A stretch of 64,000 bases of DNA, from IMG/VR virus record IMGVR_UViG_3300043464_002365, positions 1-64,000 of that record. One strand, written 5' to 3'. Source of the stretch: a virus. Position 1 is the stretch's first letter. The number at the start of each line of letters is the position of its first letter. A program made the translations under genes and the position numbers. This document shows positions 34,070 through 51,475 of the stretch, piece after piece. Under the pieces are notes generated by a model, which saw nothing but the letters and a program-made list of their open reading frames with translations, was not told where the DNA came from and did no database searches.

Positions 34070-34120
34070 CTCGTTAAGAATTGTGAACGCCTTGCAGCAG
34101 CAAGATTCTGGTGCTAGAAC
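34070..34120 (+). promoter_or_regulatory. HLR1-like repeat promoter of primase-helicase
   Basis: CTCGTTAA-GA-ATTGTGAA, 27 nt, then TAGAAC (weaker copy). Confidence 0.4.
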
Positions 34121-34141
34121 GGCCCCATCTCACATCTCTCC

Positions 34142-36190
34142 ATGGCCTTCTCCATCCTTGACCACCTTGAGCAACTGGAGCCAAGTAACGAGCCAGGGAA
34201 ATACCACTGCCCTGCATGCGGTGGCAACGATTTCACAATCAATAAAAACACTGAGGCGTACAACTGCTGGCATGACACCAGCCCTGCTCACCGCGCTGAA
34301 ATCCGCGATGCACTAGCTCCTCTCACCAGATGGGAGAAGCCGTCTCGTGAAGCCGGCAACTATTCGTTTGTCTACAAAAATAACCATGGAAAGGAAGTGG
34401 TTATTGTTCATCGTGATGACACTTCAGGCTCCAAAAAGATTTGGCAAGACTTTCCCACTATTGACAAAAATGAGAAGGGCCATAAAACCCAGCTCAAGGA
34501 AATCAAGGCAAATGTTCTTCCCTATCGTTATGACGATGCAATAGCAAAGAGCGAAGAAACAGGTCTGCCCATTTTTATTGTCGAAGGCGAACTCACTTGC
34601 GAAGCAGTGTGGATGCTCGACATTCCCTGCATCACGTTTCTTGGAGGCAGTAAACAATATCGCACTAATGGTGACTATTCAAGCCTATTCCGCAACAGGA
34701 AGCTTGTACTTTGTCCTGATCGTGACGAGCAGGGCGTTGGCTTCATGGCAGAAATTGCCAATGATAATCCTGGGGCAAGTTGGCTTTATGCAGATCCTCG
34801 TTCATGGGAATGGGACAATCTCCCTTCAGGGAATGGCTACGACTTAGGCGACTACATTGAAGAAGGCGTCACCAAAGACGATCTCCTTTCCTCCATTGTT
34901 TCCAAAAGCAGGCACCAAGGGCAAGACGGCAAACCTGCCTATGAGGAGATCATTGCCACCATCGAAAACTTTGTTGGCCTCTACGCCAATGACTCTCGCA
35001 TTGCTTATGAAACCAGCAATTGGCTAGAGCAACGTGGCGTAAAGATGAGCCAGCAAAATGTTGACAAGATCATTGCTGAAGCCAAAGACCGCATCTATGG
35101 CAGGGAAGAGCTTGAAAGTATTGACGCTCTTTCCATTGCCAATGCTGACAAAGCCCGTGAATGGCTCATTGCTGGCATTATCCCTTTGGGCAGCGTCACG
35201 CTACTTGCTGCAGGCGGTGGCACTGGTAAATCAACTGTGGCTTACAACTGGGCTCTTCATATTGGTCTTGGCACGAAATGGAGCGGACGCCGTTGCATGA
35301 AAGGTAAAACTTTGGTTTGTCAAAGTGACGAGCCTCTCATCGACACCAGCGAAAAGCTTTCCGTGATTGGCTATCAAGACACTCCGCTGGCGCCTGGCAC
35401 CATTGAATTCTGGGAAACTTGGCGCTTTGCCCATATGAAACAGCTTGAAGACTACGTGAGAAAGGAGCGTCCGCTGTTCGTAGTGATTGATAGCCTCACT
35501 GCTTGCCTTGCTGGCATGGACGTGGATATGGTGAAGAGCAATGCAGGCGATGTTATCTACGGCTTGCGCGATCTCGCCAATACCTATCGCTGTTCGATTC
35601 TCATCCTCCACCATCTCAACAAGAACGGAGGCCTCCGCGACTCAACTAGCTTCGTCGACAACGTGAGTGAAGTGGTGAAGCTCACTCGTTCTGAAAGCTT
35701 CGATCCGAATGAATTTATGCTCGAATGGATGAAGAGCCGGAGTGGTCTCACGGGCAAGCACGTGCTGAAACGTGACAATCTCACCTATGGCTGGCATTAC
35801 GCTGGGCCGCTGGGTGGTTCTCTGGAAGAGCTTGATCGAGTGGTGAACGTAGTGGAGATGCGCAAGACGGAGCGCTTCACTAAGCAACAAGTGGCTGGGC
35901 TATCAGGAAGCTTTGAAACTGGCCCTACTGGCAAGATGCTGGAAGTGGCCAGGAGGCAAGGCTTGATTAGCAGCAGCTTTGTTGTTGGTCCCAATGGAGA
36001 GCGCGAGCGTCTCTACCATTCTTGGGACTACGTTGAGCCTGAGCTTGATTTTCAGGAAGTTTCAAAAGAAGCTGAAAAGGAGCCTGATAATGAAATTCCC
36101 GCTCAGGAACAAGCTCCGCAAGAAGAACCTGCTCCCATGTTGACAAATGAAAATCTTCCCGTAAGGGAAGAGGATCACGATTTCTTCTGA
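34142..36190 (+). CDS. Primase-helicase (Zn finger, TOPRIM, RepA/AAA_25-type helicase)
   Basis: CPACG; IVEGE...PDRDEQG; Walker A AGGGTGKS; VVIDSL; ILHHLNK. Confidence 0.88.
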   Translation: MAFSILDHLEQLEPSNEPGKYHCPACGGNDFTINKNTEAYNCWHDTSPAHRAEIRDALAPLTRWEKPSREAGNYSFVYKNNHGKEVVIVHRDDTSGSKKIWQDFPTIDKNEKGHKTQLKEIKANVLPYRYDDAIAKSEETGLPIFIVEGELTCEAVWMLDIPCITFLGGSKQYRTNGDYSSLFRNRKLVLCPDRDEQGVGFMAEIANDNPGASWLYADPRSWEWDNLPSGNGYDLGDYIEEGVTKDDLLSSIVSKSRHQGQDGKPAYEEIIATIENFVGLYANDSRIAYETSNWLEQRGVKMSQQNVDKIIAEAKDRIYGREELESIDALSIANADKAREWLIAGIIPLGSVTLLAAGGGTGKSTVAYNWALHIGLGTKWSGRRCMKGKTLVCQSDEPLIDTSEKLSVIGYQDTPLAPGTIEFWETWRFAHMKQLEDYVRKERPLFVVIDSLTACLAGMDVDMVKSNAGDVIYGLRDLANTYRCSILILHHLNKNGGLRDSTSFVDNVSEVVKLTRSESFDPNEFMLEWMKSRSGLTGKHVLKRDNLTYGWHYAGPLGGSLEELDRVVNVVEMRKTERFTKQQVAGLSGSFETGPTGKMLEVARRQGLISSSFVVGPNGERERLYHSWDYVEPELDFQEVSKEAEKEPDNEIPAQEQAPQEEPAPMLTNENLPVREEDHDFF

Positions 36191-36274
36191 CGCTTCGCAA
36201 TAGGAGGGAGGCTCTAACATAGCCTCCCTGCTGCCTACCGTAGCGGGCAGCTTTCTTCAGTATAGACCAAGAAG

Positions 36275-36301
36275 AAAGGGGCCATCAGGCCCCTTTGCTT
36301 T
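36275..36301 (+). terminator. Intrinsic terminator
   Basis: aaaggggcc-atca-ggccccttt. Confidence 0.65.
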
Positions 36302-36757
36302 ACCTAATTGCGCTTGCCTTTGAAGCTTTGAGCGTCTATCAGTTTTTGGAATTCTTCTTCCTCTTTGCCTTTGCCATACAGCCAAGCCTTAGTGCTCTGA
36401 CCAGGCTTCGGACCATTTCGCGGTAGCTTGACGATTTTGTAATCCTTGAATTCTTCGTTCATAGTTCAGTTGGCGACAGAGTGGACAATGGAGCTGAGGG
36501 ATGAGGCGAGGATCGCTGTACTTGTGCCTGATTAGCCATTCGGTGATGGCTTCCTTGTCCATGGGGAAATCGGATGAGGCAATGCCATCATGCCGCCGAC
36601 CAGATCCGTCTCTGCTTTGTCTTGTGCCAGGAGAAGAAGCTGCACACAACCTCTTGATTTTGCCTCAAACTCCCTTTACCCTCACCACAGGTCTAGCCAA
36701 GTGTCGCAAGCCCATCAGCGATGGCTCCTTAGCGCATAGGCATGGCCAGCCAGGGCT

Positions 36758-36782
36758 AGCGTAGCCCCCAAGGGCGGAGCGT
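36758..36782 (+). repeat. 25-bp repeat, exact inverted copy at 52481-52505
   Basis: AGCGTAGCCCCCAAGGGCGGAGCGT; core AGCCCCCAAGGGCG also at about 36870 (+) and 52422 (-). Confidence 0.9.
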
Positions 36783-36961
36783 TCATTCATAAGGCCAAGA
36801 TCAACTATCAACAACGATCAAAGCCAAACGATGCCTAAAACCTCCGCAATGCCGCTCTAGCCAGAGTGGAGCCCCCAAGGGCGTAACGTTCAGACAAAAG
36901 GCATAGGAAACCTTCAACTGAACAAAATACGCTTAACATTGCAAAGGAAACTTCCAGCGCA

Positions 36962-37622
36962 ATGCTTCTCCCGCCTAAGCCCGTAGATAAACTCCCTCTG
37001 CTGGAGCACAATGGAGCAGAAATCCTGCCTATTGTTCATCACGGTTTTTCAAAGCCTGCTAAAGGCCAACAACCAGCATCACGAACGCTCTATGGAGCCC
37101 GTGATAATAATGGAGAGCGCCATTGGCGCTCTAGCTTGCACGAAATCCAGCAATTGATTGATAGTGGTTTCGCAGTGCAGGAGCAGGCAAATGCGTGAAT
37201 TCTGCACCAACCCCAAGGATTGCATGGCTCTCGCTTACGAGCGTGAGGCTGAACATGAAATGGACGCTCGCGGACTAGATGCTGCCTATGCAGAAATCGT
37301 CGATAGCTTCCACAAAGAAATGGAAGAATTCGTCCGAAAGTACTGTCCTAAAAAGCTGAACGATTTTGATGATTTGTTAGAAAAAGCCTTCTGGCAGTAT
37401 CATTGATCGAGGAGAAACGGGGCGCTTGGTGCGCCCCTTTGCTTAGCTATGGAAACTATCGCGCCATTGTCCGAGGCTGAATGGGAGGAGCTTTGCATGC
37501 TCAAGAAAGCAATTGATGATGGTCCGGCCACTGTCGTGGCCTCTCGCATGGAGCGTTTCACTGAATTGTTTGTTCGTACTCTCCATGGAAAAGGAGATAC
37601 AATGCGAGGAGCAAAACAATAA
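36962..37622 (+). CDS. Three small hypothetical ORFs (36962-37198, about 37191-37406, 37449-37622)
   Basis: Last ORF translated manually: METIAPLSEAEWEEL...ERFTELFVRTLHGKGD, a cyanophage-type small protein. Confidence 0.5.
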
Positions 37623-37625
37623 ACA

Positions 37626-38381
37626 ATGCCTCGTCCAGAAATTGAATTTGCCACGCCCGAAGAGGAAGAAGCTTATGCAAGAAAAGCTTTAACAAAAGCA
37701 GGCGTACCAATTACGCAGTATGAAGCCATTCGTGAGCATAAATCAAGGGGCGGCACACATGGCGCTGGCATTTATACCAAGGAAATGCTTGGCGTAAGGC
37801 GATGGATGGTGCAAGAATTATTGGCAGCAAAGATGAGCAATCGTCAGATTGCAAATGTTTTGCAGCTAAGCAAAGAAACAGTCAATGGAGACAGGCATTT
37901 CAATAGGGATCTTTACACGCAGGAAATTCTGAAGAATCAAGACACGCACAGGGCGCGTCTCCTCAAGGAGCAGATGGACCTCAAGGAGCTTGCATTGGCA
38001 AGCTTTGAAACTAGTAAGCGCAAGAAGACAGTCACCATCATGGACGGCGGTGACGATGGCAGTAAGGAAATGGTGAAGATAGAAGAAAGCGCTGGCGATG
38101 CGTCCTTTCTCAACGTGGCCAAGAATTCTTTGGTGGAGCAAGCAAAGCTCCTGGGGCTGAACGAAATCAAGCCTGTAGAAAACCAAGACACCTCCTATCG
38201 AACGTTCCTGAAAGACCTTTCCTCCACCATTGAAAAGGAGAAGGAAGCGAAGGCTACGGAAGAACGACGTGGCAATTCTCTCCTTGCGTCTGCTGAGACC
38301 ATCAGCTTTGATGCCGAACCAGAAAGCGAGCCCCTTCCTGAAGCCATGCCTTTACAAACAATTAATGAAGATGATTATTGA
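37626..38381 (+). CDS. HTH protein, candidate terminase small subunit
   Basis: MSNRQIANVLQLSKETV HTH, helical body, AKLLGL motif. Confidence 0.5.
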   Translation: MPRPEIEFATPEEEEAYARKALTKAGVPITQYEAIREHKSRGGTHGAGIYTKEMLGVRRWMVQELLAAKMSNRQIANVLQLSKETVNGDRHFNRDLYTQEILKNQDTHRARLLKEQMDLKELALASFETSKRKKTVTIMDGGDDGSKEMVKIEESAGDASFLNVAKNSLVEQAKLLGLNEIKPVENQDTSYRTFLKDLSSTIEKEKEAKATEERRGNSLLASAETISFDAEPESEPLPEAMPLQTINEDDY

Positions 38382-38406
38382 CAATGGCGCCTTGAGGCGC
38401 CATTAT
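38378..38406 (+). promoter_or_regulatory. Sigma70 promoter with palindromic spacer
   Basis: TTGACA-N17-CATTAT overlapping aatggcgcc-ttga-ggcgccatt. Confidence 0.65.
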
Positions 38407-39614
38407 TGACGAAACGCTTCCTTGCATTGGATCAATTCGCCTCCGTTGACGATTTCCTGCGCCAAGCAGTGGCAGCCAAAGACGGCAAACGTGAAGCCAT
38501 CAGCAAAAGCATCTCCCCTGGCCTGCAGGATCATGGCACCGTAGGCATTCCGCCAAAACTGGCCTCCTCCATAGAAGCCATGCTCCAGAAGCACGGCGAT
38601 GAAACCTACAGGCAAATTGCCCTGTTCTGCCTGGGCAAGTGGTTTGAGCTGCACATTGGCATGTTCGAGGAGCTGATTGGCGAGGAGCCCAGCATGGCCT
38701 GCTCATGTTTGATGGACGCCACACGCATTGCAGACGCTCTCCATCTCCTTTCGGAAATCAATAGCATTGGAGGCGACGGCGGATGGAAGCCCATGCTTGA
38801 AGAAACGCTCAGTCAGCACATTCTTGAAGAGCTTGAGGAGGAATGTTGGTAATGGCATCTTCTTGTCGCACCTATTTAATCACTACTTACGAAGGAAAGA
38901 AAATCGCCCTTGGGGCGATTTCTGCAAAACAAGCTGAACACTTCATGCTTGCAATGCGCCCTGACGTAAAGATTGCAATGATCGAGGAGATTCCTCCGCT
39001 TCCTGAAGATCCCAAATTATGACTTTCTCTTTCCATTGCACTGATGCCACTGGCCATCTTCGACTAGGACAGTTTTGTTTTCAATGGAGGAATAGTTTTC
39101 TCCTTGGCACAATGTATGACGGCTTTGGTGAAAGCAAAATCACCATTGGTTCACGCTCCTTTAATTTCGGACAGTTTCGTTTCGCCTAACCATGGACATC
39201 CAGCTCTCATTTGTTGAAGAGCATTCACTGCCTCGCATGGTACACATTTGCATTCCGCCTCAACTTCAAGAAGACGTGAGGGCCTTGGCAATGGAAGAGC
39301 CTCCCATTCATCCAGCATGGCGTAAGGCTCAAGCCAAGGGCAGGCATTTTGTCATTGCCACGAACGAGCTGGATGACATTACGGAGCTAGCCGACTTTGC
39401 CCGCACCAACATTGAGGAGCCAGAAGAGCCTCTGAGCAAGCCAAAGCGCCAGGCCTATCAAATCCTCTTGGACCGCGCCTTCAGGCATGCTGAGCTAGAG
39501 CCTATGGGCGCTTGCCATGCCATTGCCACGAAATGGAGGGAGCAGCCTTTGCCATGCCAGAAGAATCTCAGTATTGCCACGCAGGCATTGCGACACCCAA
39601 TCAGGCCTTTGTAA
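38406..39614 (+). CDS. Hypothetical ORFs (38406-38852, 38852-39022, 39019-39189, 39192-39614)
   Basis: Coupled or closely spaced ORFs. Confidence 0.45.
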
Positions 39615-39661
39615 CGATTTGTTAACGGCCCCCTTGATGGGGGCCTTTTTGCTGACATACT
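39608..39661 (+). promoter_or_regulatory. HLR1-like repeat, embedded terminator hairpin and -10 box
   Basis: TTTGTAAC-GA-TTTGTTAA; ggccccc-ttgat-gggggcc-ttttt; CATACT. Confidence 0.65.
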
Positions 39662-40345
39662 TTGCTCATGCGACGGCGAACGTCGCTAGTCCTCCGCTTT
39701 TCCATCGTGACCACCACGTTCAGCCACACCCTTCCCGATCAGCCCATCTGCGCCTATAAGGATGGAGAATTGGCGATGTTCTTCGGCCAGCCAATGGTGA
39801 CGCGCAGTTTCTCCATGGGAGACCTGCAAGAGTTTATTTGCACTATTGAAAAGGCTATTGATGAAGAGCCTAATTTTGTGCAACAAATGGCTCTTGAGCG
39901 CATTCGTTCTGCGTTCATTGTGAGCCTTGACATGCTCAAGGAGAATCATGAAGAGCTTCAGAAAGAGGCTCCACTCGGTGCCGACTTCGAGGAATACCTG
40001 ATGAACTACAACAACGCTGTCAAAGGAGGCCAACTGTGAGCACGCCCAAAGACACACTTACGGACGCTATTTTTGAATACTTTGATAATGACAATGGCGA
40101 TCAGCTCGTTAAAGATCTCGCGGAATTGTTGGCGAAAGATAGGGATCATCATCTTAGGAAATTTCGCGCTCTCTCTCATGCCTACGAGCAACTCTTTGGC
40201 CAATCATTCTGAGCTTGATTATGACCACGACAAGCGAAGCGTGATGCAACTCACTACTGCGAAGCTTGAGCGCAGGCTTCAATACTGGCGAGAGAAAGAG
40301 CAGGAGGAAATCCTTAAGCGCTATCGCCTCATCACTTCCATCTAG
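39662..40345 (+). CDS. Small hypothetical early ORFs
   Basis: 39662-40039 and following short ORFs. Confidence 0.4.
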
Positions 40346-40382
40346 CCAAATTGCCAATTTCTACACACTACGAGATTCAACA

Positions 40383-41205
40383 ATGACTCAAGAACACCCG
40401 ATCAATCCACCGCCTGAGTTGGTGCGTGAGTGGGCGACTACTAACGGAACTAGCTACGAAGATCTTTCTGCTTTGTGTCAAAACATCGCCACCCAAGCCG
40501 TCCAATGGGGCGCAGATCAGGAGCTGGAGGCGTGTTGTGAGTGGCTGCGCAGCAAGGACATTCTGGAACCTGCCATTGACGCCCTTCGCGCCGACCGCCG
40601 CCCCAAGCCGCCGAGCTTGAAGGAGCTGGCGCTTGCTCTTGTTGAGCAGCACGAAGACGGTTGGCGGCCGTCACCCAAGGATTGGGACACCATCCGCCGC
40701 GCACTGGAGGCGCTGCCCGATGGCTAAACCTCTCTCCCCCACCGCTCGCGCAGTCCTAGATGCCGCCTACCGGCGCATGGACGACAATCCGCACAACGAG
40801 GTAGAGGCAACGCTTGCCGCCGCCCTGCGAGCTGCTGTTGAGCAGGTGATGCCGGAAGTCGTAAACGCTGTTGGAGATGAGCACGATGACGCTCGCCGTG
40901 ACCAGTGGTTTCGCATCCGGTGCAAATTCCTTGCCATCGCTGATGAGCTTGAAGCCCAGTAGTCAGACCCACTAATGAACCCACAAGAAGCAGGCTTTGA
41001 CGGCGCCGAGGGCATCCGCCTAAACCACCCAGCTCTACCCAATGGAGGCATTTATAGGCTTCGACGAAACATCAATCCGCCTTGGGAATATGACAAGGAT
41101 TGCCGCAATCAACTTGTATGGCAAGAATCAGAACCGCCTCATCTCTTTTATTGCAACAGCGATGGCGAGTGGTTTGAACTGTCATTTATACCAATCCAGC
41201 GTTAG
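40383..41205 (+). CDS. GC-richer block of three ORFs (40383-40727, 40720-40962, 40975-41205)
   Basis: MTQEHPINPPPELV...WGADQELEACCEWL and MAKPLSPTARAVLDA families; TAGTCAG-N3-CACT at the last two stop codons. Confidence 0.6.
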
Positions 41206-41271
41206 TCAGGCTCACTGAGAGTTTTGCTAATTATCAGGATTTCCAATAAACGCCATTTATCAAGAATCCTG

Positions 41272-41439
41272 CTAAAGCCCCTCAAGGGGCTTTTTCTTTG
41301 TCCACGTAGTATCACCAGGCAATGGTTCAGTGGCATATTCAAACGTATCGTAATCTGGTTCATTACGAGGGTCATAAACCTCCCCGCTTGCCATCCATCG
41401 CTTAAGCCTTTCTCTTTCCTGCTCCGCAGAAAGTTTCAT
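41272..41439 (-). CDS. Small hypothetical protein (55 aa, MKLSAEQERERLKRW...)
   Basis: Manual translation; AGGAG Shine-Dalgarno. Confidence 0.55.
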   Translation of the reverse strand: MKLSAEQERERLKRWMASGEVYDPRNEPDYDTFEYATEPLPGDTTWTKKKPLEGL

Positions 41440-41510
41440 AACAATCTCCTAGCCCTTTAAGCATAGGCAAAAGAAAAGGGGCCTTACAGCCCCTTCCCTT
41501 TACATCCTCC

Positions 41511-41617
41511 GATGCCTCTGTCCCTAAAGATACAAGGGAGATGATGCGCCTCGCAGGAGACCATGCAAAAACTCCTTGGCTAAACCATACGGTTTCGCCC
41601 GCATCATCAGAGGCGTC
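41511..41617. ncRNA. Candidate multi-stem structured RNA
   Basis: Nested stems gatgcctctg/cagaggcgtc, gatgatgcg/cgcatcatc, tccct/aggga, aggag/ctcct, aaacc/ggttt. Confidence 0.5.
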
Positions 41618-41784
41618 CACCCTCGCGGCCCGCCCGAAGACGAGAGCAGCAATTAAGCCGCCAGGACCGAATGCTCAAAAATCATAACATGCTTTGTCCG
41701 CTCGGCAGTAACGGCTGATTCCATGGCACAATGGGCATTGCCTTGTCGGAGACGACATGGCCCTCGCTAGTTCTTTCGTACTAA

Positions 41785-42135
41785 TTGATGAAACGATTCC
41801 TTTTCTCTCTCCTGCTGCTATGCCCTATCCAGGCGCAAGCAGCTCTTGAATGTGGCTATGCCTCTCATTACGGCATTGGCGACGGCTACCACGGTCAGCG
41901 TGCTGCTGACGGCTCTCGCTTCGATGCCTACGGTCGCACTGCCGCCCACCCATGGCTTCCATTTGGCACGCAATTGCGTGTGAAGAATCGCAACAATGGG
42001 AAGTCAGTGACGGTGACAGTCACAGACAGAGGCCCATACTACGGAGGCCGCATCTTGGACTTGTCCTACGGCAGCTTCGCTCGCATTGCTTCCCCTTCTC
42101 AAGGCGAAGCGTCCATCTGTATCTCAAGATTATGA
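41785..42135 (+). CDS. RlpA-like (DPBB) lytic transglycosylase with signal peptide
   Basis: ASHYG, TAAHPWLPFGT, VTVTDRGPY and LDLSYGSF motifs. Confidence 0.88.
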   Translation: MMKRFLFSLLLLCPIQAQAALECGYASHYGIGDGYHGQRAADGSRFDAYGRTAAHPWLPFGTQLRVKNRNNGKSVTVTVTDRGPYYGGRILDLSYGSFARIASPSQGEASICISRL

Positions 42136-42297
42136 AAGACGTAGCTTCATTCCTTTTGCTCACCTTCGTCTTTGGGCTTGGTGCCTTTGCCATTGTTGCT
42201 TCTCCCAATGTGATGGCAAACAAAGAAGGCTTGACAAAGTGCATGCAGCTCCATCCTGAGCGCTACTGCCGCATTGCAAATGGCTTTCCCGCAAAGC

Positions 42298-42327
42298 TTG
42301 ACAGCTCTGCTCAGTAGGCTCTACACT
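42298..42327 (+). promoter_or_regulatory. Sigma70 promoter
   Basis: TTGACA-N18-TACACT. Confidence 0.55.
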
Positions 42328-42405
42328 CTCCCTGGATGACGGACGGGGCTTCCTACGCGGGAGCTCTTCTTTCCTCCTTGTTCTTTCGCTGGCGACAGGC
42401 TCCTC

Positions 42406-42684
42406 ATGGACAAAACCTCCCGCATTAAACAGTTCATTTTCAATGCTGGCCACAGCATTGTTTCTGTGGAATTCATCAAGGCTGATGGTTCTGTGCGTAA
42501 GCTTCAATTCAATCCTTGGGACACCAAGGAAATCAAAGGCACGGGCACAGCAGTGAAGAAGCCCAGCATCGTGCGTTGTCGTGATTTCTCCATTGCTCGC
42601 AAAGAAGGAGAAGGCGCTTGGCGCTCGTTTGATTGTGAGCGCGTGACAAGCATCAAAGCCAACGGTCAAACCCTCGTCTTCTGA
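42406..42684 (+). CDS. WYL-like/SH3-fold phage protein
   Basis: VEFIKADGSVR...WRSF motif. Confidence 0.6.
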   Translation: MDKTSRIKQFIFNAGHSIVSVEFIKADGSVRKLQFNPWDTKEIKGTGTAVKKPSIVRCRDFSIARKEGEGAWRSFDCERVTSIKANGQTLVF

Positions 42685-43127
42685 AATAATGCCCCTCTCT
42701 CGTACTCAACAAGCCATTGCCAAAATGGTTTCCAATAATGCTCGCCACAAGTGGCAAGATTACAGTTCTGATGATCGCTCTTCTGCTCGCTCTTTTATTC
42801 TTTCCCGTGCTAGTAAACCCGCTCATAAAGAAAAGAAAGAATTGCTTTTGACGCTTGCAAATGCTTTGCAAGATGACATCTGGAAGGTGCTTTGACCATG
42901 GGAAAGAAACTGTACGTCGTCGAAATTAACTACCAGGCTTATGTCTGGGCCGAAGACGATTGCGAAGCTGAAGATTTTGCCAACGAAATTGTTTCCACCG
43001 AGAAGCCGTCTATCTGGTCTCAAGAAGTGGAAGTAGGCAAAAATCCTTTGTCTTGGCAACAACATTGCCTGGTTTATACCGATGGCCCAGAAATTGAAAT
43101 TAGCAGAATTTTTGCGGGTGACGCTTA

Positions 43128-43319
43128 ATGGGAACAAAGGATAACAGGCGAGCAGTATTTGCCTTGGCAGCAAAATATGACTTTGTTCTCCAGCGTGAAA
43201 AAAATCACTATGTGTTCAAACATCCTTCTGGCAAGATATTTTGCACAAGTAAAAGCACTTTAGACACGCGCTTTTTGAGAAACGTTGAAAGCTTTATTAA
43301 ACGCACTCTTGCTTCCTAG
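43128..43319 (+). CDS. HicA-like protein
   Basis: FVLQREKNHYVFKHPSG...D.R..RN pattern; 63 aa, basic. Confidence 0.55.
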   Translation: MGTKDNRRAVFALAAKYDFVLQREKNHYVFKHPSGKIFCTSKSTLDTRFLRNVESFIKRTLAS

Positions 43320-43330
43320 TCTTCAAAACC

Positions 43331-43702
43331 ATGCTTTCCCTCCTTCTCGCAACTGCACTGCCCGAACTGCCTCCTGTGCAGCAACAAGCTCTCACTAAAG
43401 AAGAAGCGCTCTTGGAGCGCATCATCAAAGAAGGGCAAACTGCCACTGAGCGCAAATTCGGCGACTGCCACTACGCCTGGGGCTCTTGGAAGCTTTCTTC
43501 TGATGGCGTGAGAACCACAACGCGCCAATGCAAAGATGAAAGCGCTCACACGCCAGTGTCAATTGCCGTTAGTTGCCCGCTCTTGAAAGTGAACGTGCTC
43601 CAGGACAAGCAATGGCAGGGCTGGCGTAGTCCAGTGGCAAAAGGCGCAAAACCAGGAGAAGCCAATATGGTGGCTGCTCTCTGCGCCAACGTCACTAACT
43701 AG
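43331..43702 (+). CDS. Secreted/periplasmic hypothetical protein
   Basis: Hydrophobic N-terminus, four Cys. Confidence 0.5.
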   Translation: MLSLLLATALPELPPVQQQALTKEEALLERIIKEGQTATERKFGDCHYAWGSWKLSSDGVRTTTRQCKDESAHTPVSIAVSCPLLKVNVLQDKQWQGWRSPVAKGAKPGEANMVAALCANVTN

Positions 43703-43703
43703 C

Positions 43704-43755
43704 TTTGTAAAGCTTTGTAACAGGCCCCGGAAACGGGGCCTTTCTTCTGTATTGT
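43704..43755 (+). promoter_or_regulatory. HLR1-like repeat, hairpin and -10 box
   Basis: TTTGTAAA-GC-TTTGTAAC, 28 nt, TATTGT. Confidence 0.75.
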
Positions 43756-43774
43756 TCCTAAGTGTTCGGCAGCG

Positions 43775-44292
43775 ATGCCCCTCCAAATGGCAACCATCCC
43801 CACCATCCACCTCAACGGCACCGGCTTCACTACACTGCGAGATGAATACGCCGCTGCTTACGATGCCATCGAAAAGGCAATGGAAACACTTGCTGCAGCC
43901 ACTCTCAATGGGCGCGATTACTATCCGCAGGAACCTGGCGCTTATTACAAGGCTCGCGCTGAGCGTGATGAAGCCCTAGACAAGCTTCGTGATGCCAGTA
44001 TTTACGTTGGCGAAATGCTCGCTGGCATTTGTGACCAGCAACGCTGATTTCTAGACTAGGGGCCATTAGGCCCCTTTTCATGCCTTTCCCCATTGGAACC
44101 CTCGTTGATCTCTACGATTCAGGCTTTAAACAATGGAGAGGCGAATACACAGTGGTGAAGATATATCCTGAAACTGGCTTGCATAAGATCAAAAACACCA
44201 AAACTAATAGTCAGCAATTCGTCAGCGAAGACAAGCTCCGTATGGGCCGGCTCCGGCCTTTTCGCATGGATTGCCTTTATGAAGGTTTGTAA
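43775..44292 (+). CDS. Two small early ORFs (43775-44047, 44080-44292)
   Basis: PTIHLNGT...NGRDYYPQ family; SH3-like second ORF. Confidence 0.55.
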
Positions 44293-44327
44293 CAAGCCTC
44301 GTTGAGCGGGGCATGGTGTTGTATTGT
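44276..44327 (+). promoter_or_regulatory. HLR1-like repeat and -10 box
   Basis: TTTATGAA-GG-TTTGTAAC, 28 nt, TATTGT. Confidence 0.7.
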
Positions 44328-44369
44328 TCTCTGCATGGGCAGCGATGCCCCCTCGTTAAGGAACCAACC

Positions 44370-44750
44370 ATGGCAATCATCAACCACTCCGTCGATCAGC
44401 TCACCGGTCCTGGCTACTGGACTAAGTTCGAGGGGCTTGAGCGAATCAAGATCACTATCACTGTGCCCAACTGGCACGAGCCTTTCCCCACTCAGCAAAG
44501 AGCTGGTGCCGCCAATCCTCGCGAGCTTGAGCTGATTGGCCTGCTGCACGTTTGCCAGAGCTGGTATATCAATGGTCCCGTGATGGATCAATGGACTATT
44601 AGCACGCTCTCTGGCCCCATCAAGGTGCCTGCTGGCACCCGCATTGTTTCTGAGCCTGTGCCTGAGAAATGGGCAGCATGGGAGCAGGAAGCCAGCGAAG
44701 GCACCAAGCAGTGGTGGGCCTATTCCAACGGTCGCACGGCCTTCTGTTAA
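44370..44750 (+). CDS. Hypothetical early protein
   Basis: AAGGA Shine-Dalgarno plus MAIINHS. Confidence 0.55.
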   Translation: MAIINHSVDQLTGPGYWTKFEGLERIKITITVPNWHEPFPTQQRAGAANPRELELIGLLHVCQSWYINGPVMDQWTISTLSGPIKVPAGTRIVSEPVPEKWAAWEQEASEGTKQWWAYSNGRTAFC

Positions 44751-44795
44751 GCATTGTTACAAAGGGGCGGAAACGCCCCGCTTCTTTTCTATTGT
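44743..44795 (+). promoter_or_regulatory. HLR1-like repeat, hairpin and -10 box
   Basis: TCTGTTAA-GC-ATTGTTAC, 29 nt, TATTGT. Confidence 0.7.
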
Positions 44796-44816
44796 TCCTT
44801 TGTTCGCAACCAAACC

Positions 44817-46146
44817 ATGCACCGCACCATCGAAGGCCACAGAGAAGATCCGTATTTGGCCAAGCTTGAAGCTGATCGCCAAGCCCAGCACAGCGGCTAT
44901 GGCGTGCAATCTTATCTGTGTGCTGATGGCTCCATAAAGTGGGAAGCCTATGGATGGGAGCGCATGACTGAATTCCAGCTCCACACCACTTCCTACGGCT
45001 TGTTTGACCACAAATGGCAAGCCGAACAGTATTTCAACTCCATCATCAACGGCTGACCATGAACCCCTCCATTAAACAAGCTTGGACCGAAGCTCTTCGT
45101 TCTGGTGATTATCAGCAAGGCAGAGAAAACCTTTGCAGCAATGGCAAATTCTGCTGCCTTGGTGTGCTGACTGATCTCTATATCAAGGAGACCAACCAGC
45201 AATGGCACCATAATGTTGGTGGTTTCTACAGCTTTGAAACTGAAGGAGGCGTTTTGCCTTTTTCAGTGCAGCAATGGGCAGGACTTGATGCGCCCAATCC
45301 TTACATTACTGGCTTTCATCTCACTTCTTGGAATGATGAAGTTGGCACAAGCTTTGAAGAAATTGCCGATCTAATTGAGGCGCATTTGTGAACAATTCTC
45401 AACTCGCCCTCTCCATCAATCAACGCAACATCTACTTGCATTATTTAGCCCACAAGAAAAAGCATGGAGATGAGCCATGCAAGGCTCCAAAATGTCCTTT
45501 ACAAGGAAACAGACTTGTAGACCATTTGAAGGCAATGGAAAAGCTCGAAGAGCGAGGATTCATTCGCCTTATTCGTCGCTCTGACGATTACCTTTCTTGG
45601 ATCATTGTTTCTCCTTAAAGCCATGCCTTTTCCCGTTTCTTTTGTTTCAGAAGATGAATATGGCGTGCCTTATGCAGCACACACTTTCTCTTCCATTGAA
45701 GAACTCTACGATGAAATTAGAGCTTTAGAAGAGCTGCTTGGTGAAAGCTCTGTTAGCAGGGGCTACATCATTCAAGCTGCCCTAGATCAGCTCAAACAGC
45801 TTGCTCACGAAATCGAAGACGAACCACTCTCCACTTACGACCAATGATCACCACCATCAAAACGCACCAAGACAATGGCCCTTACTTTGATGCCACCAAG
45901 GGCAGTTACCAAGCAGCCACGCTCCAGCAGCTCATCTTTCACATTCGGCTTGCAATGGAGGACAGAGAGCATGTCATTGGCGTGTACGGGCCTGATGGGG
46001 CCTGTAAGGGCATTTGGCAGCTCGACATCGAAGGGCATGTGGACAGCGCAGGCGACAGCATCGTGGACCATGAAGGCTACGAGCTGCTACGCCCTGACAC
46101 TAGGGAGCAATGGATGTGGGGCAGGCTTCAGGAGCAACTAGCCTGA
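44817..46146 (+). CDS. Operon of five small early ORFs
   Basis: Includes the W.EALRSG.Y.QG...FCCLGV family (45059-45391). Confidence 0.55.
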
Positions 46147-46190
46147 TTTAGGAACATCTTTGATGCTTCTTTCCTGAACCCTATTCAGGC

Positions 46191-46242
46191 ATTGTTAAGC
46201 TTTGTGAACCAAGGGCATCCAGGCCCCTTTCTGCTGTATTGT
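46191..46242 (+). promoter_or_regulatory. HLR1-like repeat, hairpin and -10 box
   Basis: ATTGTTAA-GC-TTTGTGAA, 28 nt, TATTGT. Confidence 0.7.
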
Positions 46243-46285
46243 TTTCTTGTTGGGCGAGATCCCGACAGCCCTTTGCTTCCCCACC

Positions 46286-47189
46286 ATGGAATTCCTTGTT
46301 AACGCTGGCGGCCTCCTCATTAAGCACGATGAAGAGCAGCTTCTTTCTCTCATTGCTCAGTTCATCAATGAAGGCAAGCCTGGCTGCGGCTTCTTCATCA
46401 AAGGTGTGGGCTGCATTGCTAAGCACGAAGATGGCCAGATGATGATGGGCCGCACCATTGAAACTGTTAGCCGTCTCTTCAATAAGACCAGCGACGACAT
46501 TATGCACACTGTCAAGCACTGGGCTTCCGAGGCTGCTTGATTAAGCAAGGGGCGCCTAAAGCGCCCCGTTCTCCCCCTATTAAAATCATGCAAGACGCTA
46601 TTAACATTCTCGCCATCAGCAAGAAAGGCAAAAGCCGTATTGGCACCAAGATCACTCTTGGCATTGTTGAGCAGGATCATCACGACAAGCTTTTTGTAGT
46701 GTTTCCTGAACTAAATCAATGTCGATGGATAAAGAAGGATAATGATCCTGATTTTTGCATTATTGGAGATGATTGACCATGGGAACAAATTATTATCTTC
46801 ATGCTCCAAAATGCCTTCATTGCGGCAAAGAAGAAAAGCTCCCTTTACATCTTGGCAAAAGCTCTTATGGCTGGTGTTTCGGCCTCCACGTCTATCCAGA
46901 AAACGCGCTAAATAACTGGCAGGAAATGTGGAGTCATATTGATTATTTAACGCAAGAAAAAGACTATGAAATAAGAGATGAATATGGTGATTTTGTTGAT
47001 AATGGAGAGTTCTTCTCTATCGTCTGGGACAGGAGCGGCAAGCCTGGTAGACTTTTCGACAAGAAATGGCTAAGGGATAACTATGCAGAGATAGGTCCTT
47101 ACGGTCTTGCCAGACATGCTTTACTTGCAGGGCATTGCATAGGCCATGGTAAAGGGCCTTTTGATTACATCATTGGAGAATTCTCTTGA
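46286..47189 (+). CDS. Three small early ORFs
   Basis: Includes the MGTNYY...LHLGKSS.GW.F family (46779-47189). Confidence 0.55.
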
Positions 47190-47536
47190 ACAAAAAGCTT
47201 CGCCAAGCTTTTGAAAGCACCGTCCTTCTTTCTTCGGGCTCCCCATGGGAGCCTTCTTCTTTGCCTTGTTTTGTTATCTCTGCTTGCTGCCCCTACAGTC
47301 TGCCCTTTGACCCTGCCCGTGACTCTGCTCTTCACCACGAAATGAAAGACTGGCTGGAGCTACTAGGCGCATCTCATGAGGAGATCATTGGGCAATCGCC
47401 TGACGGAGCCTGGCAAGAGCCTTGCTGGGCTATTTATGGCATCACAGAAGGCCAAGCGAAGCGCTTGGGCAGGCTGTACCAGCAATGGGCAGTGTTTCGC
47501 TTTGACGAGCAGGGGAGAACAGTATTGGCTTGTTGA
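47186..47536 (+). CDS. DUF3293-like protein
   Basis: ISA..P.S, G.SPDG.W.EP and LGR.YQQ.AVF motifs. Confidence 0.65.
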   Translation: MNKKLRQAFESTVLLSSGSPWEPSSLPCFVISACCPYSLPFDPARDSALHHEMKDWLELLGASHEEIIGQSPDGAWQEPCWAIYGITEGQAKRLGRLYQQWAVFRFDEQGRTVLAC

Positions 47537-47622
47537 AAGCAAAATAATTGTTAGCATGGCGAAACATCGCGAGACTGGCATCTCGTGACGTTTCTAACCA
47601 CTACCAAAGGAGCAGTTTGGCC

Positions 47623-48201
47623 ATGGCTGAACATAAGCATAGCAGCGTGCCTGCAGGGTTTAAGGAGATCCCTGGGTATGACGGACGCTATTTCATTAAT
47701 GAGAAGGGCGACGTGTGGAGCGTAGCCAAATCAAGGCTCATGAGCCCACAGACGGACGCCACTCATCCTTATCCATGGGTGCTACTAATAAAACCCGACA
47801 AGAAAAAGCAGCCAACTACTGTTTATTTTTTAATGCGTCTTACATGGATGCCTCATGCTCCAGGTGAGGTTGGAATAGGGGCCAACAAGTGGTGCATCAA
47901 CCACAAAGACGGAAATAAGCTCAATAGCTCATTGGATAATTTGGAATGGGTGACGAATTCTCAGAATGCTAAGCACGCATGGGAGAATGGATTGCAAGCA
48001 AAAGGTATCGACAAGAAAAACGCTATCTTCACTTCTATTGACGTGACACTAATCCGCTTGCGAGTGAAATACGGAGAAAGTGCCTATTCAGTAGCGAAAG
48101 AATACAATTGCGCTTATGGCACTATCAAGAAAATGTGTCGCTTTGAGAGCTGGAAACATCAAGACGGTAATCTTAACGGACGGATCCGACCAGCATCCTA
48201 A
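47623..48201 (+). CDS. NUMOD4-HNH homing endonuclease
   Basis: FKEIPGYDGRY.I...G.V; INHKDGNKLN...NLEWVT.SQN..HA. Confidence 0.88.
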   Translation: MAEHKHSSVPAGFKEIPGYDGRYFINEKGDVWSVAKSRLMSPQTDATHPYPWVLLIKPDKKKQPTTVYFLMRLTWMPHAPGEVGIGANKWCINHKDGNKLNSSLDNLEWVTNSQNAKHAWENGLQAKGIDKKNAIFTSIDVTLIRLRVKYGESAYSVAKEYNCAYGTIKKMCRFESWKHQDGNLNGRIRPAS

Positions 48202-48202
48202 A

Positions 48203-48307
48203 AGACCCGGCTGGCTCGGTATCAGACCCGGCTGGCTCGGTATCAGACCCGGCTGGCTCGGTATCAGACCCGGCTGGCTCGGTATCAGACCCGGCTGGCT
48301 CGGTATC
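48203..48307 (+). repeat. Five perfect 21-bp tandem repeats
   Basis: AGACCCGGCTGGCTCGGTATC x5. Confidence 0.95.
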
Positions 48308-48510
48308 ACCTTTCTTTTATATAATTTCATCTCATCATCACATCATAACGCTGTCGTTATATGCCTTTATGCGCATATGCCGATATCGTTGTATGCGCAT
48401 AGCCGCATAGTAGTACAGACGTACTATAGTACAAACGTACTAGCCTGAGGCGAGGGCGATTCCCGGTTCTCCGGTGGGGAATGGGGAAAATATACCCTAC
48501 CTGGCAGCCG

Positions 48511-48692
48511 TAAATATAGCCTACTGGTGGCGGCCTTAAGAGAGGCTCACTTGTGACCATGCTAAGAGAGGCTCACTTGTGACCATGCTAAGTGAGGCTC
48601 ACTTGTGGCCGCGCTAAGTGAGGCTCACTTGTGGCCGTGCTAGTTGTCTCCTACTGGTGACGGCCTTAAAAGTAAGCCACTGGTGGCGCGCT
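48511..48692 (+). repeat. Seven 26-bp degenerate tandem repeats
   Basis: For example TAAG(A/T)GAGGCTCACTTGTG(A/G)CC..GC; consensus TAR-N8-YACT. Confidence 0.9.
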
Positions 48693-48772
48693 GATTCTTT
48701 CTGCCTACTGGCGCGATTCTGCCGAGCTTCAGTGAGACCAACTGCTGCGCGTTGCTGTCTGCCGCATGGCCT

Positions 48773-48868
48773 TAGGTGAGCCTCACTGCGCAGCACTAGG
48801 TGAGCCCTACTGTTTAGCGTTAATTGTCTCTCACTGTTTAGCGCTAGTTGAGCCCTACTGTTTAGCCC
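48773..48868 (+). repeat. Four 24-bp degenerate tandem repeats
   Basis: TAGGTGAGCCCTACTGTTTAGCG-type units with the same TAR-N8-YACT core. Confidence 0.85.
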
Positions 48869-49152
48869 TAAGTGTAGATATTTCAATACGTAACGCCGCT
48901 GGCAGTTATGGCGCTTCCAATGGTATGGGCGCTGATTGTTGCGGATTGTTGCAGCAGCGGATTGTCTTGCGGGTTCCGTGATACGCGCGTACGCGCGATC
49001 ATCTTTCTGCTGAGCACTGCGCGCAGTCTCTCCCCATTGATAAGCCTGGCTTTTCATTGCGTCGCGGATCGGGCACTGATAAGCGTACTGGCTAATCTCC
49101 CGCCAAATCAGCGTTGACTGATCGCCCGTGCTTATCGCAGGCGCTTTGCCCC

Positions 49153-49200
49153 TTTGCAAACGCTTGTGGGGCCTGTAGTGTTCCCTCAGAACCTTGAAAA
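49153..49200 (+). promoter_or_regulatory. Sigma70 promoter followed by rrn-type boxA
   Basis: TTGCAA-N16-TAGTGT; GAACCTTGAAAA at 49189-49200. Confidence 0.65.
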
Positions 49201-49235
49201 CCGAAAAGCAACGACATCGAACGCCGCAAGCGTTC

Positions 49236-49292
49236 GCGCGCGGGCCCTTTGTGGTTGCCGTGATGGCGCGGGGTCGACTCCCGCTGTGCGCT
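49236..49292 (+). ncRNA. Mini tRNA-like element
   Basis: 7-bp acceptor-like stem GCGCGCG/UGUGCGC stacked on T-arm GCGGG-GUCGACU-CCCGC. Confidence 0.55.
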
Positions 49293-49330
49293 TTGCCGGC
49301 TTTTGCCGGCCCTTCCCCTCTCTTTTATCT

Positions 49331-50083
49331 ATGGCTACCCTCTCGCACACTGCTGCGCTCCTCCTCTCCTCTCTGGAGACGGCAGAGCGTCCTAACGGTT
49401 CTCTCTTCCTCCGTCTCTCCTCCTCTGCTCCTAGTTGGGCTTCTTCTGTGATTAGAGAAGCTCACTTAGGCGAGCTCCCTAATGACTCTCGCTATGAGCT
49501 CATCAAAGACGCTCTCTCGGCTCTCTCTGATGGCGCCTTCTCTGATGAGGAGGAGGCTATCGACTCGATTGATGAGCTCTCTCTCGATCTCGTGCCACAC
49601 AGAACCACGGAGCTCCTCCAGTGGTTTGCTGATCACGCGAACCGCCTCTCCTCCTGCGATGAGGCTCTAGAAAGTGGCCGCATCTCTGATCTCTGCTCCT
49701 ATGAGCTCCTCTCTGAAGGGTTCCGCGTGGGAGCTGAGGAGATGCTCTCCTCGCTTATCTCCTCTCTAGAGGAGGAGCGTCTCTCAGTGTTCAATCCTGA
49801 CACTGATAGTCAGCTCCTCTTAGGCGACTCCCACGGGATATATATCCCCAAGCTCTGGGCCGATGGACTGGAGGATGAGGAGGAGGCAGAGTCCTATTCC
49901 GTCTCCTGGGAGGACGTCCTCATCTGTCAAGCTGGCCCAGACTCTGAGAACTACTGGCAAGCATGGGACGCAATCCTCCGCGATGCTCTCTGGAATGAAA
50001 ACGGAGAGGATTGGCGCCTCCTGCAGAATGGCGATCTCTGGGCTGTTCGCTCTGACGTAGAGATTCCTGAGGATGCATTCTGA
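49331..50083 (+). CDS. Acidic Ocr-like DNA-mimic (anti-restriction) protein with extra C-terminal domain
   Basis: AIDSIDELSLDLVPHRTTELLQWFA resembles T7 Ocr [25 protein letters not shown]; very D/E-rich. Confidence 0.6.
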   Translation: MATLSHTAALLLSSLETAERPNGSLFLRLSSSAPSWASSVIREAHLGELPNDSRYELIKDALSALSDGAFSDEEEAIDSIDELSLDLVPHRTTELLQWFADHANRLSSCDEALESGRISDLCSYELLSEGFRVGAEEMLSSLISSLEEERLSVFNPDTDSQLLLGDSHGIYIPKLWADGLEDEEEAESYSVSWEDVLICQAGPDSENYWQAWDAILRDALWNENGEDWRLLQNGDLWAVRSDVEIPEDAF

Positions 50084-50268
50084 TGAGACGGCTCTCCCTC
50101 TCCTCTCGTGAGGCTCTCTACGTCCTATGGGCTCTAGAGGAGGCTCTCCTCATCTCAGAACCTGAGGAGGAGGAGCTCCTCCTCTCTCTCATCTCTCGTT
50201 TGAACGGAGCCGCAGCCCCATTCTCCTCTGCCTCTGCCTCTCGCTCTCGCTCCTCCTCCCATGCCTGA
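50083..50268 (+). CDS. Small Leu/Ser/Glu-rich protein
   Basis: Start coupled to the previous stop. Confidence 0.45.
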   Translation: MRRLSLSSREALYVLWALEEALLISEPEEEELLLSLISRLNGAAAPFSSASASRSRSSSHA

Positions 50269-50308
50269 CGCTCTCTCCTCTCTCTACTCTGCCTCTCCTC
50301 TCTTTACC

Positions 50309-51187
50309 ATGCTCCTCTCCTCTCCTCTCCTTGACAACGTACGGGCTCTCTCTGGGCTCTCTGGCTCCTTTTACTTTTACGAACCACGGCAGGAGATTGT
50401 CAGCTCCTCCGACTACTGTTCTCCCATTGAATGGCGACAACCATCACCCAATGAGGCAGAGTCTCTCGGACTGGGAGAGCTCTCCTCCTACTCTTTGGAG
50501 CTCTGCCGAGAGCTCGGCTCCTCTGTCACCAAAATCACGCCAGAGGAGGCAGTAGAGCTCCTCTGTGAGCGCAAGCTATGGCAACGGTGCTCGCTCCTCT
50601 GGCTCCCGTCTTACTGTATGGGAGGAGACTACTGCGGCTCTACTCACCACGTGGCTAACGCTCGCTATCTCTTGCGCCAGTTCTCCTCGCCAGAGCTCAG
50701 AGAATGCAACGGAGGCTATGGGAGTCAAGGTGTCATTGTTGACCCTCGCTATCTCTCAGAGGAGCTCCTAGAACTCCTGCAGAGTCTTGAGAACTATCCC
50801 GTTCTCTGTGAGGATGAGCTCTCCTCCTACGAACTAGAACTACAGAACGAAACCTGGGATCACACAATCCGCAGAGAATGGGAGAGAGCTCTAGAGAGCG
50901 CTCTCTCCTCTCTCCTCTCAGACAATGAGGAGCTCGCAGAGAATGCAGTAGAGAGCCTCTCAGAGGATGCCCTGTTCTCTCTGTTCTCTCATTGTGCCGA
51001 GCTCTCTAATACCTACTGGGAGGCAGAGAGCGGAACTACTGTCTATATAGACATTGATCGCATCGCTCAGAGCCTCTCCTCAGAGCTCCTCCTAGAGCTC
51101 CTACAAGAGAGCCTCTCCTCTCAGTTCTCCCAGGCTCTACAGCCTCTCCTAGCCTCCTCTCAGCTCTCCCTGGAGCTCGCAGGCTGA
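50309..51187 (+). CDS. Acidic early protein (possible DNA mimic)
   Basis: GGDYCGS and LENYPVLCEDELS..E.E...E.W motifs; very Glu-rich. Confidence 0.55.
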   Translation: MLLSSPLLDNVRALSGLSGSFYFYEPRQEIVSSSDYCSPIEWRQPSPNEAESLGLGELSSYSLELCRELGSSVTKITPEEAVELLCERKLWQRCSLLWLPSYCMGGDYCGSTHHVANARYLLRQFSSPELRECNGGYGSQGVIVDPRYLSEELLELLQSLENYPVLCEDELSSYELELQNETWDHTIRREWERALESALSSLLSDNEELAENAVESLSEDALFSLFSHCAELSNTYWEAESGTTVYIDIDRIAQSLSSELLLELLQESLSSQFSQALQPLLASSQLSLELAG

Positions 51188-51197
51188 TACTCCCTGG

Positions 51198-51225
51198 CAG
51201 GCTCTCTCCTCAGTGAGAGAGCCTG
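51198..51225 (+). terminator. Hairpin closing the CT-rich cassette
   Basis: caggctctctc-ctcagt-gagagagcctg. Confidence 0.6.
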
Positions 51226-51313
51226 TTCTCTGTGAAAAGTGGGAGCATCTCATCAATTCTCATTGAGTCTCACTTTGATTCTCAATAACGCCGCTTATTG
51301 AGAACGCTCTCCT

Positions 51314-51366
51314 TTTGTAACGTATTGTGAAACGGTAGCAACGGATGCAGACGTATGGAGTAGTGT
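51314..51366 (+). promoter_or_regulatory. HLR1-like repeat and -10 box with no downstream ORF
   Basis: TTTGTAAC-GT-ATTGTGAA, 29 nt, TAGTGT. Confidence 0.6.
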
Positions 51367-51475
51367 ACGCTAGGGAGCAGTAGAAAGGCCGCCAGTGGTT
51401 TTGGGGCTGCGGTATATGCTCCGAAATGTGGCGCTAAAAATGATACAGAATTTTCACTTTCCTAAGTATAAATAC

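Follow-up and report, generated by a model that had tools for sequence, protein, structure and literature searches.

In the NblS/Hik33-RpaB regulon of Synechocystis 6803 and S. elongatus 7942, the photosystem I (PSI) promoters (psaAB, psaD and others) lack a -35 element and carry instead HLR1, two 8-bp direct repeats with a 2-nt gap, centred near -50. RpaB is known to activate both psaA and psaD, which count among its targets in Synechocystis and, by chromatin immunoprecipitation sequencing (ChIP-seq), in S. elongatus (PMC6525291). PSI genes carry HLR1 in the activating position; activating sites are centred between -66 and -45 with a peak near -51, and phosphorylated RpaB is required (PMC6525291; PMC13421787). 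A passage of the former source states, citing Riediger et al. 2018, that HLR1 also occurs in cyanophage genomes (PMC6525291). Our literature search found HLR1 in cyanophage genomes only mentioned in passing, and no report of an RpaB-linked cyanophage promoter family. The cyanophage sites of Riediger et al. reportedly lie at phage copies of hli and psbA, in a repressing position. Here we describe a set of candidate promoters, built on an HLR1-like repeat, in IMG/VR virus record IMGVR_UViG_3300043464_002365, a genome of 73,876 bp rated 100% complete by CheckV; its first 64 kb (64,000 nucleotides) are the window to which all positions below refer. These sites differ from the earlier ones, as reported, in that no psbA/psbD or hli gene was found in the phage genome, in agreement with the first-pass annotation of the window, in that they stand in the activating position, and in that they form a whole promoter family. 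As far as sequence and comparison can tell, they are promoters without a -35 in which a host HLR1/RpaB-type site occupies the activating position, and RpaB-dependent activation is their probable mode of use.

Other described systems are similar in part. PeSL (promoter-early stem-loop) cassettes of T4-like phages comprise a full sigma-70 consensus promoter with its -35, an AT-rich upstream region and a stem-loop beside it (PMC2839356, PMC4122927). The NtcA-activated class II promoters of cyanobacteria and cyanophages, like the phage sites, have no -35 and place a host global regulator upstream of TAnnnT. Their sites are inverted repeats, GTA-N8-TAC, which a passage of PMC3898017 places at -41.5, whereas the phage repeats are direct and centred near -50.

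The first-pass annotation had proposed seven direct repeats, and each was found where it had been placed, on the plus strand. With the elements that follow them they are:

34070 to 34120, plus strand: cassette 1, 5' of the primase-helicase gene; repeat 34070-34087, small hairpin at about 34091-34104, extended -10 TGC-TAGAAC (TGn plus hexamer) at 34112-34120.
39608 to 39661, plus strand: cassette 2; repeat 39608-39625, hairpin 39627-39645 with T-run, -10 CATACT at 39656-39661.
43704 to 43755, plus strand: cassette 3; repeat 43704-43721, hairpin 43722-43741 with T-run, -10 TATTGT at 43750-43755.
44276 to 44327, plus strand: cassette 4; repeat 44276-44293, hairpin at about 44296-44312, -10 TATTGT at 44322-44327.
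44743 to 44795, plus strand: cassette 5; repeat 44743-44760, hairpin 44764-44779 with T-run, -10 TATTGT at 44790-44795.
46191 to 46242, plus strand: cassette 6; repeat 46191-46208, weak hairpin at about 46213-46226, -10 TATTGT at 46237-46242.
51314 to 51366, plus strand: site 7; repeat 51314-51331, -10-like TAGTGT at 51361-51366.

A search with WTTGTDAM-N2-WTTGTDAM, allowing up to two mismatches, returned 11 matches against 3.25 +/- 1.8 in shuffles, and 11 was reached in none of 100 shuffles. Every one of the seven sites, and every one of the 43 members of the wider family introduced below, has a repeat period of exactly 10 bp, and the repeats lie on the gene strand throughout, both in the phage and in two complete relatives. 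Against the published HLR1 consensus, KTTACAWW-N2-KTTACAWW, which is independent of the phage sites, the repeat at 43704 is an exact reverse-complement match, as had been claimed; those at 39608 and 51314 have one mismatch, those at 44276 and 46191 two, that at 44743 three and that at 34070 four. The consensus alone finds 3 sites with at most one mismatch (0.07 expected) and 6 with at most two (1.38 expected), and five of these six are among the listed sites, all on the plus strand. Both half-sites of HLR1 are recognisable, except at 34070, where only one is. The label "intergenic" given to the sites was loose: at 39608, 44276 and 44743 the TAA stop of the upstream open reading frame (ORF) falls inside the repeat.

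From repeat to hexamer the spacers measure 27, 30, 28, 28, 29, 28 and 29 nt in the order listed, within the 27-30 nt first described, and the hexamers are as first read: TATTGT four times, TAGTGT, CATACT and TAGAAC. The absence of a recognisable -35 was likewise borne out, the best candidates 16-18 nt upstream of the hexamers matching 1-4 of 6 positions against a chance mean of 2.4. If the start is assumed to lie 7 nt after the -10, the repeat centres stand at -48.5 to -51.5, and the repeats fall, relative to this predicted start, within the -45 to -66 range of the activating class. Visual inspection suggested recurrent hairpins just 3' of the -10, a few of them with loops of the GCGA type; since they fold no better than control 45-mers, we make no claim about leader hairpins.

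For comparison with host promoters, 80 cyanobacterial psaA loci were fetched with a short PsaA peptide used as search key only; the DNA alone was analysed, and 75 upstream regions were usable. A repeat (proximal half-site pattern nTT(G/A)TnA(A/C)) followed after 27-32 nt by TAnnnT was present on the sense strand in 65 of the 75, against 3 of 75 on the antisense strand. The psaA repeat has the orientation of the phage repeats and stands 29-32 nt before the -10 box. Cyanobium and Synechococcus have GGATTGAA-CC-TTTGTAAC, 30 nt, and TATACT or TATGCT, and filamentous and other cyanobacteria ATTTTGAA-TT-ATTGTTAA, 30-31 nt, and TATAAT. The picocyanobacterial psaA half-site TTTGTAAC is also the commonest half-site of the phage. 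Upstream of psaD the stringent psaA-type pattern matched in only 1 of 29 Cyanobiaceae genomes; inspection then revealed a diverged repeat one helical turn further upstream than in psaA, AATGTTGA-CG-GGTGTGAA, in the same orientation and 39-41 nt before TAGCTT or TACTTT, in 25 of the 29. A matrix built from host psaA and psaD repeats only places the seven phage sites at ranks 2, 7, 12, 17, 26, 36 and 106 of 147,718 phage-genome positions, with cassette 6 (46191) at rank 2. On this comparison, the phage cassettes share the psaA/psaD promoter design in motif, orientation and geometry.

The phage sites also depart from the host PSI promoters: they precede replication and ORFan genes, they hold a hairpin nested in the spacer, their -10 is mostly TATTGT where the host has TATAAT, TATACT or TATGCT, and they are nearer to the consensus. 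The strict two-half-site pattern, with at most one mismatch, occurs 6 times in the 74 kb of the phage (about 80 per Mb) and, at the same stringency, 4 times in the 14 Mb of five picocyanobacterial genomes (about 0.3 per Mb). These four matches are at chance level (a control pattern gave 3), and no telling genes lie downstream of them. Since the strict pattern is found only at chance level in the five genomes, the phage sites are closer to the consensus than the host's; a genome-wide strict-pattern search of host-type genomes was dropped, the host sites being too degenerate.

Under the explanation we favour, the cassettes would be activator-dependent promoters for host RNA polymerase that copy the cyanobacterial PSI design. 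A dimer of phosphorylated host RpaB, a protein of the OmpR family, would bind the two 8-bp direct repeats with their 10-bp period; centred about 50 nt upstream of the start, it would recruit RNA polymerase to a -10, mostly TATTGT, that lacks a -35. The roughly 28 nt between activator site and -10 would then require no specific sequence, and the phage could therefore house the terminator of the preceding gene there. Each cassette would close one transcription unit and open the next under RpaB control, the units opened being the primase-helicase gene and five small ORFan genes. Transcription would be on while RpaB is phosphorylated and DNA-bound, that is, in low or moderate light with an oxidised acceptor side, and would fall when RpaB is released in high light or redox stress. 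In this scheme we infer that RpaB binds, where transcripts start, in which direction regulation goes and to which time class the genes belong.

The phage itself is a complete 73.9-kb cyanosiphovirus related to Synechococcus siphovirus S-CBS4. A search of 50,697 phage records at the DNA level gave no match, and the kinship is found at the protein level only: its 682-residue primase-helicase is 57.5% identical to S-CBS4 gp082. The gene order is that of S-CBS4, in which the tape measure and other tail genes are followed by an exonuclease/Sak operon read leftward, then by the rightward primase-helicase and many small genes. Because S-CBS4, the closest isolate, infects Synechococcus sp. CB0101, the host is likely a cyanobacterium and probably a picocyanobacterium; the half-site TTTGTAAC is common to the phage and to Cyanobium/Synechococcus psaA. 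IMG/VR provided 14 relatives with primase-helicase identities of 56-100%, of which two are complete and bear terminal repeats.

From the phage and these relatives together we gathered 43 distinct cassettes. A -10-like hexamer stands 26-32 nt past the repeat (mode 28) in 37 of them, and in 25 of these 37 it is TATTGT; the spacing thus proved to be kept in related phage genomes, a check that the first-pass annotation had suggested. A longer, psaD-like spacing occurs at S-CBS4 site 68654 (41 nt) and in the variant of cassette 2 in relatives L004 and L015; S-CBS4 has a further site at about 67090. The spacer had been described simply as 27-30 nt of DNA, which is right as to its length but overlooks that it mostly holds a GC-rich hairpin plus T-run. 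In the phage, the spacers of 39608, 43704, 44276 and 44743 contain GC-rich hairpins of -10.8 to -17.7 kcal/mol, with a T-run next in three, and that of 46191 a weaker one of -7.0 kcal/mol. Of the 43 spacers 30 fold at -8 kcal/mol or below, whereas only 5% of control 27-mers do so. Stem sequences vary widely; what is kept in the spacer is therefore structure rather than sequence, whereas the repeat and the -10 are kept as sequence. These hairpins look like intrinsic terminators of the preceding gene, and the predicted order of a unit is stop codon, activator box, terminator, -10, short leader and next gene. We call the units terminator-in-promoter cassettes because the spacer usually holds the terminator hairpin of the upstream gene.

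In being small composites of terminator and promoter, repeated between ORFan genes in a variable region, the cassettes resemble PeSL elements, and a promoter with a stable stem-loop between ORFans is found in both. The PeSL hallmark, a full sigma-70 promoter with -35, is absent, no -35 rising above chance at the seven sites; the phage cassettes have an activator site instead, and their stem-loop lies inside the promoter. Like PeSL elements, the cassettes may act as mosaic joints: three relatives have homology blocks that start exactly at 43703/43704, block ends fall at 44284/44287, 44761 and 44800, and the cassettes of some relatives look chimeric, with the box of one cassette of our phage and the hairpin or leader of another. 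Ends of homology blocks lie within 15 nt of a cassette in 9 of 106 cases against 3.9 expected (binomial P about 0.016, with non-independent subjects), and many ends lie at ordinary gene borders. Because the enrichment is modest, the subjects are non-independent and so many ends are at gene borders, we regard the likeness to PeSL as functional and partial only.

A scan of IMG/VR with the composite pattern returned at least 119 candidate stretches, mostly on AT-rich contigs, where chance matches are likely. Among them were five further relatives and, in three unrelated groups of contigs, arrays of half-sites. These arrays lie on contigs that share no protein with the phage (L156:3235-3290, L136:8160-8280, L159, L161, L165 and L171) and take three forms: tandem runs of four to five TTTGTAACTG copies, units of 52 bp that contain TTTGTAAT/TTTGTAAA, and TTTGTAAC/ATTGTTAC boxes in pairs. 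L156, the sole unrelated array contig checked, could not be placed as a cyanophage.

Readings other than promoters activated by RpaB have to be weighed, and each seems improbable. The one that survives best, though still unlikely, is a phage-encoded DNA-binding protein that would act at each unit as a middle-gene activator or a stoperator-like repressor, the resemblance to HLR1 being coincidental or convergent. Phage sites so much nearer to a perfect repeat than host sites would suit such a factor, as would the smaller number of sites in distant relatives, which is expected if site and factor co-evolve. A candidate is the 251-residue protein encoded at 37626-38381, which has weak GerE and HTH_38 matches; the GerE match (E 0.0012) is below the cut-off, a minority of the members of its look-alike clusters carry HTH_23 or Sigma70_r4, and no solved relative was found. 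On the other hand, dimers of the OmpR family typically bind 8-mers in tandem on a 10-bp period, and no OmpR-type winged-helix domain (Trans_reg_C) was found in six frames of the complete phage genome, control genomes being positive. A phage factor also fails to explain the orientation, half-site and spacing held in common with host psaA and psaD promoters, and a repressor would be expected over the -35/-10 region, not centred at -50. The S-CBS4 homologue of the 251-residue protein is labelled "RNase E" (phrog_645), a label without support here.

It is somewhat less probable still that RpaB binds the repeats mainly as decoys, promoter activity being secondary. High-affinity sites, multiplied as phage DNA replicates, would then drain phosphorylated RpaB from the host chromosome, so that the high-light regulon (hli, psbA, nblA) would be de-repressed and PSI genes would go down. 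The far higher site density in the phage than in host-type genomes, the closer fit of phage sites to the consensus than of host psaA/psaD sites, the absence of any psbA or hli found in the phage, and site 51314, a conserved repeat without a conserved promoter, all speak for a decoy role. Seven sites per genome is, however, a small number. Moreover, the fixed orientation and the 27-30 nt to a -10, in 37 of 43 family members, are not needed by a decoy, and promoter function is therefore favoured.

The least probable reader is another host regulator, be it RpaA (clock output), PhoB/SphR or NtcA, with genes following clock, phosphate or nitrogen status: Pho-box- and NtcA-type promoters are known on cyanophages, but the HLR1 consensus fits five sites with 0-2 mismatches and the architecture is shared with PSI genes, themselves targets of RpaB. 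The cyanobacterial Pho box consists of 8-bp direct repeats on an 11-bp period, and PhoB/SphR was rejected on the exact 10-bp period of the seven sites and the 43 family members. NtcA was rejected as well, the repeats being direct rather than GTA-N8-TAC, with TAA, TTA or TGA at positions 15-17 and a centre at -50. In favour of RpaA, it shares some target promoters with RpaB and competes with it there (PMC13421787).

Activation by RpaB, which we prefer, has several points to contend with. The -10 boxes and starts are predicted from sequence, and as a -10 hexamer TATTGT is uncommon. Such sites are few or absent in L014 and in most of S-CBS4, which are more distantly related, and the host of this uncultured phage is predicted from kinship. 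Strong RpaB sites would explain why the phage repeats come nearer to the consensus than typical host sites do, but so would a different reader, and the 251-residue protein, with its faint helix-turn-helix or sigma-region-4-like hints, could bind DNA. Two of the sites are themselves weak: 34070, with one good half-site only, is a weak HLR1, and 51314 has neither a conserved -10 nor a plus-strand gene after it. The earlier proposal that presumed early genes and the primase-helicase are wired to RpaB is partly supported, by the HLR1 match, the activating position and the likeness to psaA and psaD, and is weakened at these two sites. At 34070, one good half-site beside a weak one is the pattern of host psaA too.

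Gating of infection by light, as first suggested, is one possible purpose of the cassettes. An equally simple possibility is that the phage borrows a strong, constitutively active PSI-type promoter design, since PSI-type promoters are highly active in ordinary growth light. The high closeness of the phage sites to the consensus fits selection for strong activator binding and leaves room for a decoy role. A bolder proposal, which we hold to be unlikely, is that a cyanophage without photosynthesis genes steers the host light response by DNA sites alone, redox-tied transcription and titration of phosphorylated RpaB together replacing psbA and hli; the titration would then switch the host to a high-light-like state, with hli, psbA and nblA up and PSI down.

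Light governs cyanophage infection at the levels of adsorption, replication and diel transcript rhythms, and to our knowledge the molecular link from host photosynthetic state to phage promoters has not been established. The cassettes offer a concrete candidate for it: an 18-bp host-regulator site in fixed position at about six promoters, in a phage in which no photosynthesis genes were found. Activation by RpaB would make phage replication genes follow the redox signal of NblS-RpaB; phage transcription is probably tied to the photosynthetic state of the host. What appears to be new here is that predicted HLR1-type activated promoters, each with a terminator nested inside, stand before replication and ORFan genes of a phage. 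The terminator-in-promoter layout is compact and insulates one expression unit from the next, which might make it useful in cyanobacterial synthetic biology.

The cassettes are set among the following features:

34024 to 34051, minus strand: canonical leftward sigma-70-type promoter, divergent from cassette 1; TTGACG, 16 nt, TATATT, 10 of 12 matches.
34142 to 36190, plus strand: primase-helicase gene, 3' of cassette 1; AAA_25 E 6.6e-26, phrog_239 DNA primase/helicase E 2e-33.
39668 to 46540, plus strand: block of small genes, with the units after cassettes 2-6, from the gene map.

In cassette 1 the distal half-site is poor and the proximal one, ATTGTGAA, perfect, all but one of the four HLR1 mismatches being distal. 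Close relatives keep this cassette, with compensatory changes in the hairpin and conserved TGCTAGAAC/TGCTACAAC, of which TGCTAGAAC would read as the extended -10; relatives with 74-77% primase-helicase identity are without it and have an unrelated upstream region instead. Upstream of the site lies a divergent promoter region rather than a gene read in the same direction. The -35 of the leftward promoter is kept in close relatives, and this promoter serves the exonuclease/Sak annealing-protein operon. The cassette 1 repeat lies about 61 nt upstream of the predicted leftward start, also within the activating window, and a single RpaB site might act on leftward and rightward transcription alike. 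The top match of the host-derived matrix is GTTTTTAT-TG-ATTGTGAA at 34232-34249 on the minus strand, within the beginning of the primase-helicase gene; 28 nt and then TATTTC follow it. This repeat may belong to an RpaB-type promoter that is antisense or leftward, or it may be due to chance.

In cassette 2, the stop codon within the repeat is that of ORF 39192-39614; the cassette is kept in L005, L006, L008 and L013, and the variant in L004 and L015 has a spacer about 10 nt longer. The TAA of ORF 44080-44292 falls within the proximal half-site of cassette 4, which is kept in L015, L163 and L194. Cassette 5, with its upstream TAA also within the repeat, is kept in L011 and L166. The five genes 3' of cassettes 2-6 (39668-40039, 43775/43787-44047, 44370-44750, 44817-45056 and 46286-46540) fall in no Pfam or PHROG family and have no recognisable function. 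At 45385-45402, the junction of ORFs 45014-45391 and 45388-45618, a weak repeat-like TTTGTGAA-CA-ATTCTCAA without hairpin or -10 may be a decayed cassette.

At site 51314, the repeat and about 20 nt after it are kept in G001, G005 and L194; these relatives have no hexamer at the standard distance, and TAGTGT lies in an insertion private to the phage genome (G000). The minus strand carries the gene that comes next, endonuclease VII (51476-52066). Whether site 51314 is a promoter is doubtful: a small RNA may be transcribed from it, or RpaB may bind there with no promoter attached. After it, between convergent genes, lies a conserved non-coding block (51366-51515) in which GGGGCTGCGGTATATGCTCCGAAA and an AGTATAAATACT palindrome are both kept in relatives and which contains a terminator-like hairpin at 51485-51502. 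The block is a possible small RNA, and an Rfam search of 33-57 kb found no family.

The RNR gene was tried as a route to the host genome and given up: it matches only two contigs (L017 and L018) in metagenome-assembled genomes (MAGs) labelled Verrucomicrobia or Methylacidiphilales, probably mis-binned phage DNA. The psaA contigs L020, L031, L067, L072 and L098 sit in MAGs labelled Methylophilaceae, Mesorhizobium, Salipiger, Pimelobacter and Sphingobacterium; both sets most likely reflect binning errors in public MAGs. Finally, a tRNA-Ile (GAT) at 56232-56300 is the sole tRNA gene in the window.

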